Assembly (NCBI RefSeq): GCF_988243305.1
Contig: NZ_OZ547136.1
DNA: 64,000 nt
Reading direction: 5' to 3' (one strand)
Shown here: positions 7,052 through 23,690 of the stretch, in pieces
Position numbering within the stretch: position 1 is the stretch's first letter
Layout of the letters: every line of letters begins with the position of its first letter
Notes under the pieces: model-generated
Told to the model about the DNA's origin: nothing
Seen by the model: only the letters and a program-made list of their open reading frames with translations
Database searches by the model: none
Made by a program: the position numbers and the translations under genes

Positions 7052-7978
7052 CTATATCTGATACAACGGATCCCCTTCCCGCCCAGCCATTAGCGCACGG
7101 CCCTGGCCTCGTACCACGTCCCATAACGCTTGTGCGGCGGTGGAAAGTGAACGGTTCTTCCTGCGCACCAGCATCAACTGGCGTTCCACCACCGGCGTAA
7201 TGCGCTTTACCACCAGCGGGCTACCTTCAGGTAACGGCAGCGCCAGTGCGGGAAGAATACTAATGCCGATGCCTGCGGCTACCATCGGGAACAGCGTCGC
7301 CGGATGACCAATCTCCTGCACAATATTCGCCTGAATACCGTTGCGCGCCAGCGCTGCGTCAATCAGCGGTCGGCTGCCTGACGCGTAATCCTGCAACACC
7401 AATTTCGCTCCCTGTAATGCCTGCCAGGGTACATAATCTTCCGCGGCCAAAGCGCTATCGCGATGGCAAAGCAAGAAGAAAGGCTCGGAAAGAATCGCTT
7501 CACATTGCAGATCGCCCACTGGGCCTGGATCGATGACGATGCCAAAATCGACATCTCCCTGGCGAATACTTTCCATCACCCACTGCTGCGGACGATCGTG
7601 CAGGATAAACTGAATATCTGGATAGCGGCGATGGCTTTCAGCAATGCATTGCGGAATAAGATGCGCGGAAATGGTCTGGCTGGCAGCGACCCGAACTTTT
7701 CCGCTCAGTTGTTGCCCCATACGCCCGGTATCGCGCAACGTGCTGTTAAGTTCATCCAGCAGTCGCTCAAGACGCAAAGCCAACTGCTGCCCTGCATCTG
7801 TAAGCACCACTTCACGCGTGGTTCTGTCCAGCAGGCGAACACCAGTATGATTTTCCAGCTCCTTCACACTGTGACTCACTGCCGACTGGCTCAGGCCGAT
7901 ACGCTCTCCTGCACGACTAAAACTTTTCTCCTGCGCTACTGTGACGAAAACCTTTAATTGTTTTAAAGAATAATTCAT
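7052..7978 (-). CDS. yfeR: LysR-family transcriptional regulator
   Basis: 308 aa; N-terminal HTH ([38 protein letters not shown]). Confidence 0.9.
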
Positions 7979-8067
7979 CTGTTTTCTTTATGAATGGATG
8001 CAATAAATCAATTTTATTTCTCAAACTGGAAGAAGCACAATAGAACCATCGATCATCTGGAGTCTTT

Positions 8068-9066
8068 ATGAAACTTTTTCGTATCCTCGATCCTTTCACC
8101 TTAACCCTGATCACGGTGGTGTTGCTGGCCTCTTTCTTTCCGGCCAGAGGCGATTTCGTCCCCTTCTTTGAAAATCTGACCACCGCAGCGATTGCCCTGC
8201 TGTTTTTTATGCACGGCGCGAAGTTGTCGCGTGAGGCGATTATTGCTGGCGGTGGGCACTGGCGACTGCATTTGTGGGTAATGTGCAGCACCTTCGTGCT
8301 GTTTCCTATTCTGGGCGTGCTGTTTGCCTGGTGGAAACCGATAAATGTCGACCCGATGCTCTACTCCGGTTTTCTCTACTTGTGCATTCTCCCCGCTACC
8401 GTGCAGTCTGCAATCGCCTTCACGTCAATGGCGGGCGGTAACGTTGCGGCGGCGGTTTGTTCTGCGTCAGCATCCAGCCTGCTGGGTATTTTCCTTTCAC
8501 CATTGCTGGTTGGCCTGGTGATGAATGTTCACGGTGCAGGGGGCAGCCTTGAGCAGGTCGGTAAAATTATGCTGCAACTGCTGCTGCCGTTTGTGTTGGG
8601 GCATCTTTCCCGGCCGTGGATTGGTGACTGGGTGTCGCGCAATAAAAAATGGATTGCGAAAACTGACCAGACGTCCATTCTGTTGGTGGTTTATACAGCG
8701 TTCAGTGAAGCCGTCGTTAATGGTATCTGGCATAAAGTTGGCTGGGGATCATTGCTGTTTATCGTGGTGGTCAGCTGCGTTCTTCTGGCTATCGTGATTG
8801 TAGTTAACGTCTTTATGGCACGCCGACTGGGCTTCAATAAAGCAGATGAAATTACTATCGTCTTTTGTGGTTCGAAAAAGAGTCTGGCAAATGGCATCCC
8901 GATGGCAAACATTCTTTTCCCCACAGCGGTGATCGGTATGATGGTGCTGCCTCTGATGATTTTCCATCAGATCCAATTGATGGTCTGTGCGGTGCTGGCG
9001 CGTCGATACAAACACCAAACCGAACAGTTACAGGCGCAGCAGGAAAGCCGCGCCAATAAAGCTTAA
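8068..9066 (+). CDS. yfeH: Putative solute:sodium symporter (bile acid:Na+ symporter-like membrane protein)
   Basis: 332-aa polytopic membrane ORF divergent from yfeR. Confidence 0.88.
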   Translation: MKLFRILDPFTLTLITVVLLASFFPARGDFVPFFENLTTAAIALLFFMHGAKLSREAIIAGGGHWRLHLWVMCSTFVLFPILGVLFAWWKPINVDPMLYSGFLYLCILPATVQSAIAFTSMAGGNVAAAVCSASASSLLGIFLSPLLVGLVMNVHGAGGSLEQVGKIMLQLLLPFVLGHLSRPWIGDWVSRNKKWIAKTDQTSILLVVYTAFSEAVVNGIWHKVGWGSLLFIVVVSCVLLAIVIVVNVFMARRLGFNKADEITIVFCGSKKSLANGIPMANILFPTAVIGMMVLPLMIFHQIQLMVCAVLARRYKHQTEQLQAQQESRANKA

Positions 9067-18399: not shown

Positions 18400-18831
<432 letters not shown>

Positions 18832-18833
18832 TC

Positions 18834-19745
18834 TTAAATCCCCGCCCCCTGGCTAAAGTGTTCTTCCCCAAACACGCCGGTGGAGAGGTAGCGATCGCCG
18901 CGATCGCAGATGATCGCCACAACCACCGCGCCGGGGTTAGCTTTTGCCACGCGCAGTGCTCCGGCAACCGCGCCGCCGGAGCTAACGCCACAGAATATTC
19001 CTTCCCGCACCGCCAGTTCACGCATGGTGTTTTCCGCATCGCTCTGATGAATATCCAGCACCTCATCCACCAGCGAAGCGTTGAAAATCCCCGGCAGATA
19101 TTCCGCAGGCCAGCGGCGAATGCCGGGAATGCTACTGCCCTCTTCCGGCTGCAGGCCAACAATGGTCACCGGTTTGGATTGTTCGCGCATAAAGCGTGAA
19201 ACGCCGGTGATAGTGCCGGTTGTTCCCATGCTGGAGACAAAATGGGTAATGCGCCCGCCGGTTTGCTGCCAGATTTCCGGCCCGGTGGTGGTGTAATGGG
19301 CGTAAGGGTTATCAGGATTATTGAACTGATCGAGCAGCTTTCCTTCGCCACGATTCGCCATCTCCAGCGCCAGATCGCGCGCACCTTCCATGCCCTGCTC
19401 TTTGGTGACAAGAATCAGTTCCGCACCATAAGCACGCATCGCCGCACGGCGTTCCTGGCTCATGTTGTCGGGCATCAGCAATTTCATGCGATAGCCTTTA
19501 AGCGCGGCAATCATTGCCAGCGCAATGCCGGTGTTACCACTGGTGGCTTCGATCAGCACGTCACCCGGTTTAATTTCCCCGCGCTTTTCCGCCTCGACGA
19601 TCATCGAAAGCGCCGCACGATCTTTCACCGAACCTGCCGGGTTATTGCCTTCCAGTTTTAACCACACTTCACTGCCGTTATCCGGCCCCATTCGCTGCAA
19701 CTTCACCAGAGGCGTATTGCCAATTGTTTGTTCTAATGTACTCAC
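18834..19745 (-). CDS. cysM: Cysteine synthase B (O-acetylserine sulfhydrylase B)
   Basis: 303 aa from GTG (VSTLEQTIGNTPLVKLQRM); PLP lysine motif GSVKDR; last gene of cysPUWAM. Confidence 0.95.
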   Translation of the reverse strand: MSTLEQTIGNTPLVKLQRMGPDNGSEVWLKLEGNNPAGSVKDRAALSMIVEAEKRGEIKPGDVLIEATSGNTGIALAMIAALKGYRMKLLMPDNMSQERRAAMRAYGAELILVTKEQGMEGARDLALEMANRGEGKLLDQFNNPDNPYAHYTTTGPEIWQQTGGRITHFVSSMGTTGTITGVSRFMREQSKPVTIVGLQPEEGSSIPGIRRWPAEYLPGIFNASLVDEVLDIHQSDAENTMRELAVREGIFCGVSSGGAVAGALRVAKANPGAVVVAIICDRGDRYLSTGVFGEEHFSQGAGI

Positions 19746-19767
19746 GATCTCTATCCATACGTGGTGT

Positions 19768-19805
19768 TGCCTGATGCGACGCTTGCGCGTCTTATCAGGC
19801 CTACA
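19768..19805. repeat. REP (palindromic unit) in the cysA-cysM spacer
   Basis: gcctgatgcgacgcttgcgcgtcttatcaggcctaca, classical REP-type palindrome; a second hairpin gcccgga...tccgggc follows at about 19829-19858. Confidence 0.7.
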
Positions 19806-19878
19806 GGTTACAAACCTTGCCATTAAAAAGCCCGGATCGCGGGAAGCGCCTCCGGGCGTTTAACATTCACTCAACCTA

Positions 19879-20976
19879 TCAGGCGCTTTGTGCGAGAGCA
19901 AGTTCCTCATCGCGGGTTTCAATACGCTCGTCGCCGTTATACAGCCGCGCATGTTGCAGACCAACGAATAAACGCTCGCCACGTTGCGGGGCGTCGTCGC
20001 CGTGCATCACGACCGTCAGCGCTTCGTTGTACCACCCCAGCGGCTGCACGACTAATTGGGTGTAGTGGCCTTTCGGGCTGGCTTCCAGTACCTGTACCGG
20101 CAGCGGCGAATCGAGGCTGGTACGGCGGCTGATATCCACTTCCCACGGGCGCAGGAAGAGATCCACCGGCCCCTGATACGCAGGTGTATAGCCCAGCGGC
20201 CAGCGATGTGCGCCAACATGGAACTGCCCGCCGCGAATGGTTCCCTGCAGGCGGTTCACTTCGCCCATAAATTCGAGCACAAAGCGGGTCGCTGGTTCGC
20301 GCCATACCTGATCCGGCGCATCAGCCTGCTCGATATTGCCCTGGCTCATCACCACTACACGATCGGCTACTTCGGTCGCTTCTTCCTGGTCATGGGTCAC
20401 GAATACGCTGGTAAATTTCAGTTCTTCATGCAGTTGACGCAACCAGCGACGCAGCTCTTTACGCACCTGCGCATCCAGCGCGCCAAACGGTTCATCAAGC
20501 AGCAGAATTTGCGGTTCTACAGCAAGCGCACGCGCCAGCGCCACACGCTGTTTCTGCCCGCCGGAAAGCTGCGCCGGATAACGATCCGCCAGATGGGCAA
20601 GCTGGACCATCTCGAGCAATTTTGTCACTTTCGCTTTGATAGCTGCGGCATTCGGGCGCTCGCGACGCGGCAGCACCGTCAGGCCAAAAGCGATATTGTC
20701 GAACACCGTCATATGGCGGAACAGCGCGTAATGCTGAAACACGAAACCGACTTTACGATCGCGCGCATGCAGGCGGCTGACGTCGGTGCCGTGGAAGCGA
20801 ATATGCCCGCTGGTTTGATGCTCAAGCCCGGCGATAATCCGCAGCAGCGTGGTTTTCCCGGAACCAGACGGCCCCAGCAATGCGACCATCTGACCAGAAG
20901 GAATATCCAGTGAGATATCGTTCAGCACCTGGGTGCGACCAAACGACTTCTTAATATTGGCAATCTCAATGCTCAT
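19879..20976 (-). CDS. cysA: Sulfate/thiosulfate ABC transporter ATPase
   Basis: 365 aa; Walker [13 protein letters not shown] signature [15 protein letters not shown]. Confidence 0.97.
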
Positions 20977-21841
20977 GATGTTCCTCCTGCTGCGCGCGTT
21001 TTTCCTGATTCTCCAGACGCCACTGCAACATACTCTTTAAAAACAGGGTGATAATCGCCATCAGCGTCAACAACGCGGCAGCGGTAAAGGAGCCGACGGT
21101 GTTGTAGTCTTGCTCCAGCAATTCAATCTGTAGCGGCAGCGAAAGTGTTTCGCCGCGAATCGAGCCGGAAACCACCGACACCGCACCAAACTCGCCAATC
21201 GCGCGGGCGTTGGTCAGCACCACGCCATAAAGCAGCGCCCAGCGGATGTTCGGCAGCGTGACGCGGCGAAACATCTGCCAGCCAGACGCGCCAAGCAAAA
21301 TCGCCGCTTCGTCTTCCTGGCTGCCCTGGCTTAACATCACCGGCACCAGCTCACGCACCACAAACGGACACGTCACGAAGATGGTGACCAGCACCATTCC
21401 CGGCCAGGAGAACATAATTTGCAGATTATGTTCATCCAGCCAGCCACCGAGCGGGCCGTTAGAGCCGTAAAACAGCAGATACACCAGACCGGCAACCACC
21501 GGCGACACGGCAAACGGAATGTCCAGCAGCGTCAGCAGCAACTGGCGTCCGGGGAAGTTAAAGCGCGTCACCAGCCAGGCCAGCAGAATGCCGAACACCA
21601 GGTTCACCGGCACGGCAATCAGCGCAATCATCACCGTCAGCCAGATGGCGTGCAGCATGTCCGGATCGGCCAGATTCTGTAAAACTGGCATCAGCCCTTT
21701 GCTGAATGCCTGCACGAAGATGTAAATCATCGGCACCAGCAGGATGAACGCCGAAACCAGCATCCCGATGCCAATCAGAAACCATTTGCCCCAGTTAATC
21801 GGGCGCGCGTCATAACGCTTCAATTGGGTAACTTCCGCCAT
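20966..21841 (-). CDS. cysW: Sulfate/thiosulfate ABC transporter permease
   Basis: 291-aa membrane ORF overlapping cysA by 11 nt. Confidence 0.95.
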
Positions 21842-22674
21842 TAATGACCTACCACACGCCGACCAAAGCGACTTTGCAGAGTGTTAATTGAGAACAGCAG
21901 CAGCAGGGATGCCGCGAGGATCACCGAAGCAATCGCGCTCGCCGCCGGGTAATCAAACTCCTGCAAGCGCACAAAAATCATCAGCGACGTCACTTCCGTC
22001 TTCCAGGCAATGTTCCCGGCGATAAAAATTACCGCGCCAAACTCACCGAGGCTGCGGGTAAACGACAGCGCCACGCCCGCCACCAGCGCCGGAGAAAGCT
22101 CCGGCAGCACCACTTTGCAGAAACTCTGCCAGCGCGTTGCGCCGAGCGTTTCCGCCGCTTCTTCATATTCCGGGCCTAACTCTTCCAGCACCGGCTGCAC
22201 GGTACGCACCACAAACGGAATACTGGTAAAAGCCATCGCCACCGCAATCCCCAGCCAGGTATAGGTAACTTTGATATCAAACTTCGCCAGCCATTCACCG
22301 TAAAAACCGTTCACGGAAAAGAGCGAGGCCAGCGTCAAACCGGCGACTGCCGTTGGCAGCGCAAAGGGTAAATCCATCAGCGCATCAAGCAGCGTGCGGC
22401 CCGGAAAGCGATAACGGGTTAAGATCCACGCCATCAGCAGGCCGAAAACGCCGTTAAAAATTGATGCCACAAACGCCGACAGCAGCGTCACTTTGTAGGC
22501 CGCGACCACTTGTGGGTTGGTGATCACCTCCCAGTACTGCGCCCAGCTCATCTGAGCCAGCTGCATCACCAGCGCGGAGAGCGGCAGCAGCAAAATAAGG
22601 CACACAAACAGCAGACTGGTGCCGAGGCTTAAGGTAAAGCCCGGCAGCACGCGTCTTGATGAAACTGCAAACAT
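21841..22674 (-). CDS. cysU: Sulfate/thiosulfate ABC transporter permease
   Basis: 277-aa membrane ORF; TAATG stop/start overlap with both neighbours. Confidence 0.95.
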   Translation of the reverse strand: MFAVSSRRVLPGFTLSLGTSLLFVCLILLLPLSALVMQLAQMSWAQYWEVITNPQVVAAYKVTLLSAFVASIFNGVFGLLMAWILTRYRFPGRTLLDALMDLPFALPTAVAGLTLASLFSVNGFYGEWLAKFDIKVTYTWLGIAVAMAFTSIPFVVRTVQPVLEELGPEYEEAAETLGATRWQSFCKVVLPELSPALVAGVALSFTRSLGEFGAVIFIAGNIAWKTEVTSLMIFVRLQEFDYPAASAIASVILAASLLLLFSINTLQSRFGRRVVGH

Positions 22675-23690
22675 TAATTACGCCCCGCCGCTAACAGCTT
22701 GTCTAACTCGCCGCCGCTGGTGAAGTGGGTTTTCATCACTTCCGGCCAGGAGCCAAATTTGTCTTCCACGCGGAACAGTTCGGTCTGCGGGAATTTGTCT
22801 TTCAGTTTGTCCATGACTTCCGGGTTATTTACGCGGTAGTAATAGTCGGTGATGATGGTTTGCGCCTGCGGGCTGTAGAGCCAGTTCAGGTAAGCTTTTG
22901 CTGTTTTTTCCGTACCGTTGGCCTGCACGTTTTTATCGACCCACGCCACCGGGAATTCCGCCAGAATATTGGTTTTCGGAATCACCACTTCAAAGCCTTG
23001 CGCTTCATACTGTTTGCGAATGTTGTTCACTTCCGATTCAAAGCTAATCAGTACATCGCCCAGCCCGCGCTCGGCAAAAGTGGTGGTCGCGCCACGACCG
23101 CCGGTATCGAACACTTCAACGTTTTTCAGGAACTGGGTCATAAACTGTTCGGTTTTGGCTTTGTCGCCACCGTCAGCTTTATCCGCTGCGCCCCATGCCG
23201 CCAGATAGGTATAACGCGCGTTACCCGACGTTTTCGGATTCGGGAAAATCAGCTTCACGTCGGAGCGCACGAGGTCGTTCCAGTCGTGAATATTCTTCGG
23301 GTTGCCCTTACGCACCAGGAAGCCCATGGTGGAGTAGAACGGCGAGCTATTATTCGGCAGGCGCGACTGCCAGTCGGCCGGGATCAGCTTGCCTTTATCG
23401 TGCAGGATTTGTACGTCGGTCACCTGGTTATAAGTGACAACGTCGGCTTTTAAGCCCTGTAAAATCGCCAGCGCCTGTTTTGATGACCCGGCATGTGATT
23501 GTTTTATCGTCAGTTTGTCGCCGCCGTTATCTTTTGCCCATTGTTGCTCAAACGGCGGATTCAGGGCGGCAAACAGCTCGCGGGAGACGTCATAAGAACT
23601 GTTCAGCAGTTCCGTTGCCTGTACATGGCCCGCCAGCAGCAGAGAAGCGACCAGCGCGAGTGAGTTCTTTTTCAGTAAGTTAACGGCCAT
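22674..23690 (-). CDS. cysP: Thiosulfate/sulfate periplasmic binding protein
   Basis: 338 aa with signal peptide [25 protein letters not shown]. Confidence 0.95.

Follow-up and report, generated by a model that had tools for sequence, protein, structure and literature searches.

A conserved terminator-like hairpin and a lineage-specific REP element between cysA and cysM in Escherichia coli

Introduction

The cysPUWAM operon of Escherichia coli has one wide gap. Its first four genes run into one another, and the fifth, cysM, is separated from cysA by a spacer with two RNA hairpins. The question is which of these hairpins, if either, holds cysM apart from the transporter genes in expression. 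A preliminary description of the locus gave this role to a REP element. We argue that a different answer is probable. The two hairpins are independent and differ in origin, the conserved functional element is the hairpin next to cysA (hairpin 1) together with the U-run behind it (19825-19829), and the REP is secondary.

The architecture is an ordinary regulatory one, and this locus itself is uncharacterised. In the text of Stead et al. 2010 cysPUWAM is treated as one polycistronic unit, and cysM is counted, as is conventional, in this CysB-controlled unit. A literature search for a REP or a terminator between cysA and cysM found nothing specific to it.

Layout of the operon and its spacer

The window is the whole stretch of DNA that was analysed (64,000 nt) and is E. 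coli chromosome. Of 5426 complete E. coli genomes, 5424 match at least 80% of a 2.2-kb query at the locus, and the matched segments are annotated with cysW, cysA, cysM and yfeK. The five cys genes were identified with full-length NCBIfam equivalog models, each of which matches its gene from end to end:

cysP, 22674-23690, minus strand
cysU/T, 21841-22674, minus strand
cysW, 20966-21841, minus strand
cysA, 19879-20976, minus strand
cysM, 18834-19745, minus strand

By their ORF coordinates cysP and cysU overlap by 1 nt, cysU and cysW by 1 nt, and cysW and cysA by 11 nt. The spacer between cysA and cysM spans 19746-19878 (133 nt). It is equally long in K-12 MG1655, where it lies at 2539584-2539716 (K-12 coordinate = window coordinate + 2519838). 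This layout is what the preliminary description had reported, namely overlapping or abutting transporter genes followed by a 133-nt spacer with a REP and a second GC hairpin. Its limits for the REP (19768-19805) are within 1 nt of ours.

The spacer was compared with those of related species in an alignment anchored on both coding ends (A1), which holds E. coli, E. albertii, Pseudocitrobacter faecalis, three Citrobacter and Lelliottia. The elements of the spacer and its two borders are:

End of cysA, 19876-19881, minus strand: TGA stop at 19881-19879 and in-frame TAG at 19878-19876 (sequence and ORF coordinates)
Hairpin 1, 19830-19857, minus strand: stem of the terminator-like element, folding at -17.7 kcal/mol; the second GC hairpin of the preliminary description
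U-run UUUUUAAU, 19822-19829, minus strand: directly 3' of hairpin 1 (sequence)
REP block of about 64-65 nt, 19758-19821, minus strand: an AGGTT-TGT-AACCT hairpin, the REP and a ACACCACGTA flank, missing in Citrobacter and Lelliottia (alignment A1)
REP, 19769-19804, minus strand: a single Z2-type element (36/36 match), reading GTAG-GCCTGATAAGACGC-GCAA-GCGTCGCATCAGGC on the mRNA
Translation start of cysM, 19743-19756, minus strand: weak Shine-Dalgarno-like GGATAGAG at 19756-19749 and GTG at 19745-19743 (sequence; full-length CysM match from residue 1)

On the mRNA strand the order is the cysA TGA, the in-frame TAG, 21 nt without structure, hairpin 1, UUUUUAAU, the small AGGUU-UGU-AACCU hairpin, GUAG with the REP palindrome, 23 nt containing GGAUAGAG, and the GUG of cysM. 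The folding energy of the whole spacer has a z of -3.17 relative to dinucleotide shuffles, and the centroid structure retains both hairpins.

Both borders are conserved. The cysA stop is TGA in 53 of 56 species loci, with the in-frame TAG next to it in the Enterobacteriaceae, and TGATAGGTT is invariant in all 8 rows of A1 (Escherichia, Pseudocitrobacter, Citrobacter, Lelliottia). The start codon of cysM is GTG in 53 of 56 Enterobacterales species loci. That a non-ATG start has been kept suggests selection for low CysM translation. Together with the weak Shine-Dalgarno the conserved GTG would push cysM output down at the level of translation.

The far end of cysM differs between strains. In the window strain its stop (18834-18836) and the convergent stop of yfeK (18829-18831) are 2 nt apart. 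About 950 bp found at the cysM 3' end in K-12, comprising yfeS and a Y+Z2 BIME (compared at 7700-8672 of our locus L001), are missing from it. The window strain therefore has no obvious cysM terminator, and transcription of cysM would read antisense into yfeK.

The hairpin next to cysA

The stem of hairpin 1 begins 21 nt past the cysA stop, which puts it 5' of the REP on the mRNA, and TTTTT (19829-19825) follows it directly. Both the order on the mRNA and the T-run are absent from the preliminary description. The RNA is GCCCGGA-GGCGCUUCCCGCGA-UCCGGGC (19857-19830). Its outer arms are GCCCGGA at 19857-19851 and TCCGGGC at 19836-19830, and a 3-bp GCG/CGC stem lies inside them. This fits the sequence definition of an intrinsic terminator, with a 7-bp GC stem and inner stem, a fold of -17.7 kcal/mol, a U-run immediately after, and a position past the stop codon. 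A d'Aubenton-Carafa-type discriminant, approximate here and computed with modern energies, gives hairpin 1 a value of +14.6 and the REP, which has no U-run, one of -54.7. A promoter/terminator consensus scan called no terminator in the spacer. Hairpin 1 was missed by this simple scan because its 14-nt outer loop exceeds the loop limit of 8 nt. The large, partly paired loop and the U-run of five suggest at most a moderate termination efficiency. Terminated cysPUWA transcripts would be expected to end at the U-run, at about 2539663-2539667 on the minus strand of K-12.

The 61-nt segment with hairpin 1 is single-copy and occurs in 5425 of 5426 E. coli genomes, every copy being at least 95% identical. 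Its T's are kept as well. A1 has no variation at T73-T75 of the row (window 19827-19825). In a second alignment, A2, which includes six ordinary E. coli rows, the same holds for four of the five T's (19828-19825). A search of the spacer against Rfam returned only a match to naRNA4 (REP) below threshold and a chance match to mir-23, and no riboswitch or sRNA family.

Conservation across the Enterobacterales

Loci with cysM were collected from 80 GTDB species and the spacer was taken wherever cysA is directly upstream, which gave 56 loci. Spacers of up to 250 nt (51 species) were then searched for their most stable single hairpin with a tail directly behind it of at least 5 T in 8 nt and at least 3 in the first 4, and a hairpin counted at -12 kcal/mol or lower. 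Such a hairpin with a T-run is present in 42 of the 51 species (median -15.6 kcal/mol) and in 7 of 510 dinucleotide shuffles (1.4%). Four species without a call do have a GC hairpin, followed by a poorer T-run. By the same approximate discriminant 35 of 50 species score positive. The stem end is usually 17-36 nt ahead of the cysM GTG, and normally about 20 nt ahead.

Among the stems at least nine unrelated sequence types can be told apart. These are GCCCGGA/UCCGGGC, GCCCGGU/ACCGGGC, GGCCGGG/CCCGGCU, GCGGCC/GGCCGC, GGGCGGG/CCCGCCC, GGCAACC/GGUUGCC, UGCUCAUCUC/GAGAUGAGCA, a Xenorhabdus type and a Tatumella type. Siccibacter has a terminator-like hairpin of the form GAAGCGGCC-UCGU-GGCCGCUUU-UUUU. 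Stems of different genera cannot be aligned, so the count against shuffles stands in for a count of covariation in hairpin 1. As far as sequence comparison can tell, the terminator-like element is conserved by structure and position and not by sequence.

REPs themselves take part in this turnover. The stem adjoining the T-run in Enterobacter-, Pluralibacter- and Kosakonia-like species is a GTAG-tagged REP that is paired with an inverted copy. Two inverted GTAG-tagged REPs, the second abutting the T-run, are seen in the spacers of loci L013-L018, L003 and L044. Single metagenomic contigs contain many copies of an exact 30-mer from the Enterobacter-like REP. We fetched 80 metagenomic loci with this 30-mer (L088-L167), 77 of which are not cysA-cysM loci, and a T-run follows only 10 of the 80 copies. 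Since the T-run is mostly missing at the dispersed copies, it belongs to the locus and not to the repeat. The comparison indicates that the stem has been supplied over time by different sequences, REPs among them. In Enterobacter-like genomes the terminator stem seems to have given way to a REP.

The REP and its insertion

The REP of the window agrees at 36/36 positions with the Z2-type consensus GCCTGATGCGACGCTNNCGCGTCTTATCAGGCCTAC, which has 0 matches in 100 shuffles of the window. The arms of its palindrome (19769-19782 and 19787-19800) are 14 nt long and 86% complementary, with the typical internal mismatches, and CTAC at 19801-19804 on the plus strand gives the foot tetranucleotide GTAG on the mRNA. 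Its RNA hairpin, at -20.5 kcal/mol, is the most stable in the spacer. It starts 74 nt past the cysA stop and ends 23 nt ahead of the cysM GTG. Its loop is 4 nt long, and a half-site scan finds one good REP copy in the whole 64-kb window. A query with the full spacer hits a median of at least 40 places per E. coli genome (minimum 13, up to at least 68). Among the matches listed with positions, the extra places cover nt 74-108 of the query, which is the REP part. At least 80% of the spacer is present in 5421 of 5426 E. coli genomes. Its consensus match, GTAG foot, many copies per genome and place outside genes make this a Z2 REP.

Three narrower assignments were considered and rejected. A BIME has at least two REPs in alternating orientation with short linker motifs between them and the spacer has one REP, so the BIME reading fails and the gyrase/IHF reading with it. 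The spacer scores 37.9 bits against the naRNA4 model (Rfam RF02564), whose gathering score is 59.5, and aligns only to model positions 44-76 of 77. Ribosome-stalling REPs reportedly begin no more than about 15 nt past the stop codon of the upstream gene; the REP here is 74 nt past the stop and the stem of hairpin 1 is 21 nt past it.

Hairpin 1 and its T-run are orthologous in all the species of A1. The REP is not. About 65 nt between UUUUUAAU and UGGAUAGAG, the REP included, are confined to the Escherichia and P. faecalis rows, and in the rows without this block the GTG of cysM is within about 19 nt of the T-run. The Citrobacter werkmanii spacer, for example, is 67 nt long, with the terminator-like hairpin and no REP. 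A short direct repeat (TGG/ATGG) flanks the block. Relative to Citrobacter and Lelliottia, the alignment identifies the REP block as an insertion between the T-run and the ribosome-binding site of cysM. Judged from the same rows, the REP is dispensable for the conserved architecture.

The corresponding site of P. faecalis DSM 27453 (L004, 1407-1565) has hairpin 1 and the flanks CAAGGTTT ... GTATGG as in E. coli, and a Y-type REP with an inverted Z2-type REP (a BIME) takes the place of the single Z2 REP. A Y+Z2 pair and a single Z2 between identical flanks suggest REP turnover at one insertion point. It must be noted that a second Pseudocitrobacter genome (L003) has a different, Enterobacter-like spacer.

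Within E. coli the substitutions fall mostly inside the REP block. Across the six ordinary A2 rows of E. coli, hairpin 1 has a single change: its last stem base goes from C to T, which leaves a G-U pair and a longer U-run. K-12 MG1655 has A for the G at window position 19800 (GTAGACC vs GTAGGCC), the first stem base of the REP. This removes the foot pair and weakens the hairpin from -20.5 to -18.2 kcal/mol. Other E. coli lineages have C to T changes in the block that preserve G-U pairs, and a 1-nt indel in the flank. The REP is also present in E. albertii, where a stem change still pairs as G-U.

E. coli AST205 (NZ_AP043614.1; L087, 2937-3643) is among the few E. coli genomes without the standard spacer. 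It has an IS200C exactly between the UUUUU of hairpin 1 and AAUGG, and the REP is intact downstream of the IS200C, adjoining cysM. This insertion is likely to be polar on cysM.

Transcript evidence

A consensus scan found no sigma-70-like promoter in 19400-20200 on either strand. Published transcript maps give little at the junction. The curated Term-seq list of Adams et al. 2021 (LB and M63 glucose) is limited to 3' ends above threshold and includes none for cysA, cysM or K-12 25396xx. The operon may have been below their read threshold. The nearest Rho-termination regions in the same study are at 2543521, inside cysP, and at 2538040, antisense to yfeS and downstream of cysM; none is in the spacer. 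The one in cysP (window about 23683, minus strand) is strong (score 17, p about 6e-46) and lies a few codons into the gene, which points to Rho ending transcription prematurely at the operon's start in the conditions used by Adams et al. 2021. The supplements of TERMITe, SMRT-Cappable-seq and Cappable-seq have no match for the spacer in either K-12 coordinate system.

One expression data set bears on the junction more directly. RNA-seq of an lsrR mutant of avian pathogenic E. coli has cysUWA up about 9-fold with cysM unchanged. This is compatible with uncoupling at the cysA-cysM junction, but it is not a clean test since cysP is unchanged as well.

Proposed mechanism and its alternatives

We infer the termination, the stabilisation and the expression ratio from the sequence, and propose the following. 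Hairpin 1 and its U-run resemble a Rho-independent terminator, and most likely end a fraction of the transcripts from the cysP promoter. At the least, hairpin 1 should form and protect the 3' end of cysPUWA, so that there would be more cysPUWA than cysPUWAM RNA. cysM would be made only from read-through RNA, because no promoter was found and because in most species there are about 20 nt from the T-run to the cysM start. The REP would be a later insertion into the read-through leader of cysM that added a second stable hairpin. Judging from other REPs inside operons, this REP may also impede 3' exonucleases, attenuate transcription, or do both, but it would be neither the ancestral nor the principal determinant. 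With the GTG start and the weak Shine-Dalgarno, the predicted net effect is a cysM output below that of cysPUWA.

The preliminary description had the REP probably lowering cysM below the transporter genes. The anatomy behind that claim stands, and so does its general expectation, by analogy with the upstream bias of REP-containing gene pairs (Harris et al. 2026, bioRxiv 10.64898/2026.03.23.713779). What the comparative data speak against is the REP as main actor, since its block is specific to one lineage and the hairpin with its U-run is kept across the Enterobacterales.

The alternative that follows the preliminary description makes the REP hairpin the operative one. It would block 3'-5' exonucleases, stabilise the cysPUWA mRNA and lower cysM, and hairpin 1 would be incidental. 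The REP has the perfect consensus and the most stable hairpin of the spacer. It is fixed in E. coli, going by the 5421 of 5426 genomes with at least 80% of the spacer, and in E. albertii, with G-U pairing kept. The upstream bias is also stronger for more canonical REPs (Harris et al. 2026, bioRxiv 10.64898/2026.03.23.713779). However, the REP is missing from the other sampled genera of Enterobacterales, one Pseudocitrobacter excepted, and the hairpin and T-run are kept there. Hairpin 1 is upstream of the REP on the mRNA and so would already define and protect the cysPUWA 3' end; an RNA that ends at the U-run never contains the REP. The REP without a U-run scores poorly as a terminator (-54.7), and the broken foot pair of K-12 suggests relaxed constraint. 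We therefore regard this alternative as unlikely. One could go to the other extreme and suppose that neither hairpin measurably affects expression, the REP being selfish or neutral in a permissive gap and hairpin 1 a decayed REP-like relic. The stem of hairpin 1 does resemble the GCCCGG...CCGGGC REP-like palindromes of Citrobacter and Enterobacter, the spacer of AST205 tolerates an IS200C, and REP effects are highly context dependent with a wide variance (Harris et al. 2026, bioRxiv 10.64898/2026.03.23.713779). But without selection it is difficult to account for a hairpin with a T-run that persists through at least nine unrelated stem types, in 42 of 51 species compared with 1.4% of shuffles, and the T-run is specific to the locus and not part of the REP family. 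This makes such neutrality very improbable to us.

Two further scenarios keep hairpin 1 as a working element and give it another task. It could be an efficient terminator that closes a cysPUWA operon, with cysM expressed mainly from a promoter of its own. Strong, canonical-looking terminators at the junction in many genera, such as that of Siccibacter, point this way, and so does the flat cysM transcript beside the roughly 9-fold rise of cysUWA in the lsrR data. However, neither the spacer nor the 3'-terminal ~320 nt of cysA yielded a promoter-like site. The T-run of most species is just 17-25 nt from the cysM start, too short a distance to fit a promoter past the terminator, and a promoter inside cysA would still need read-through of that terminator. 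We give a separate cysM promoter little chance. Alternatively the hairpin and U-run might be a conserved attenuator that is read through conditionally, for example according to sulfur source or cysA translation, or else the 3' end of an Hfq-type sRNA from the cysA 3'UTR that has been kept in all Enterobacterales. Either way the Escherichia REP would have re-tuned the coupling between thiosulfate/sulfate uptake (CysPUWA) and CysM. We mention this as a long shot. The leaky terminator with a REP added later is the reading that we carry forward.

Significance

If the leaky-terminator reading is true, the ratio of the sulfate/thiosulfate transporter to O-acetylserine sulfhydrylase B would be set by a small RNA element as old as the Enterobacterales, and E. 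coli would show a mobile REP layered on that element without replacing it. The Enterobacter-like REP that has apparently taken over the terminator stem offers a small example for the debate on REP function. For the engineering of cysteine and thiosulfate pathways, the expression of cysM would be a likely bottleneck. No general principle is changed by any of this.

Comparison with known systems

The intercistronic REP of malE-malF reportedly acts as a stabiliser. In yjdMN, REP325 stabilises the upstream gene and attenuates the downstream gene. Across 146 REP-containing tandem pairs the median log upstream/downstream ratio is 0.96, compared with -0.09 in controls (Harris et al. 2026, bioRxiv 10.64898/2026.03.23.713779). 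Like the REPs of malEFG and yjdMN, that of cysA-cysM lies between co-oriented genes of one operon where upstream-biased expression is expected. It differs from them in being a single Z2 REP and not a multi-REP array, in lying downstream of a separate terminator-like hairpin, and in its restriction to Escherichia and one Pseudocitrobacter. It is probably secondary because of that hairpin upstream of it and because of that restriction. The naRNA4/REP325 family (RF02564) provides a similar comparison, in which the cysA-cysM REP aligns to positions 44-76 of the 77-nt model and is one unit, not a REP325 array.

BIMEs are said to be associated with Rho-dependent attenuation. The cysA-cysM REP resembles these attenuators in belonging to the REP family, in lying between genes within a transcribed region, and in its potential to cut downstream transcription. 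It differs from them in that there is one REP only, and in that the Rho-termination regions listed by Adams et al. 2021 include none in the spacer. Hairpin 1 calls for another comparison. Internal partial intrinsic terminators, such as the rplL-rpoB attenuator and T1 of rpsU-dnaG-rpoD, set expression ratios within operons, and this reportedly holds as a general principle. Hairpin 1 departs from these examples in its large, partly paired loop and its run of five U's, and its termination is a prediction. It shares with them a GC stem and a U-run placed directly after the upstream cistron, with no room for a downstream promoter.
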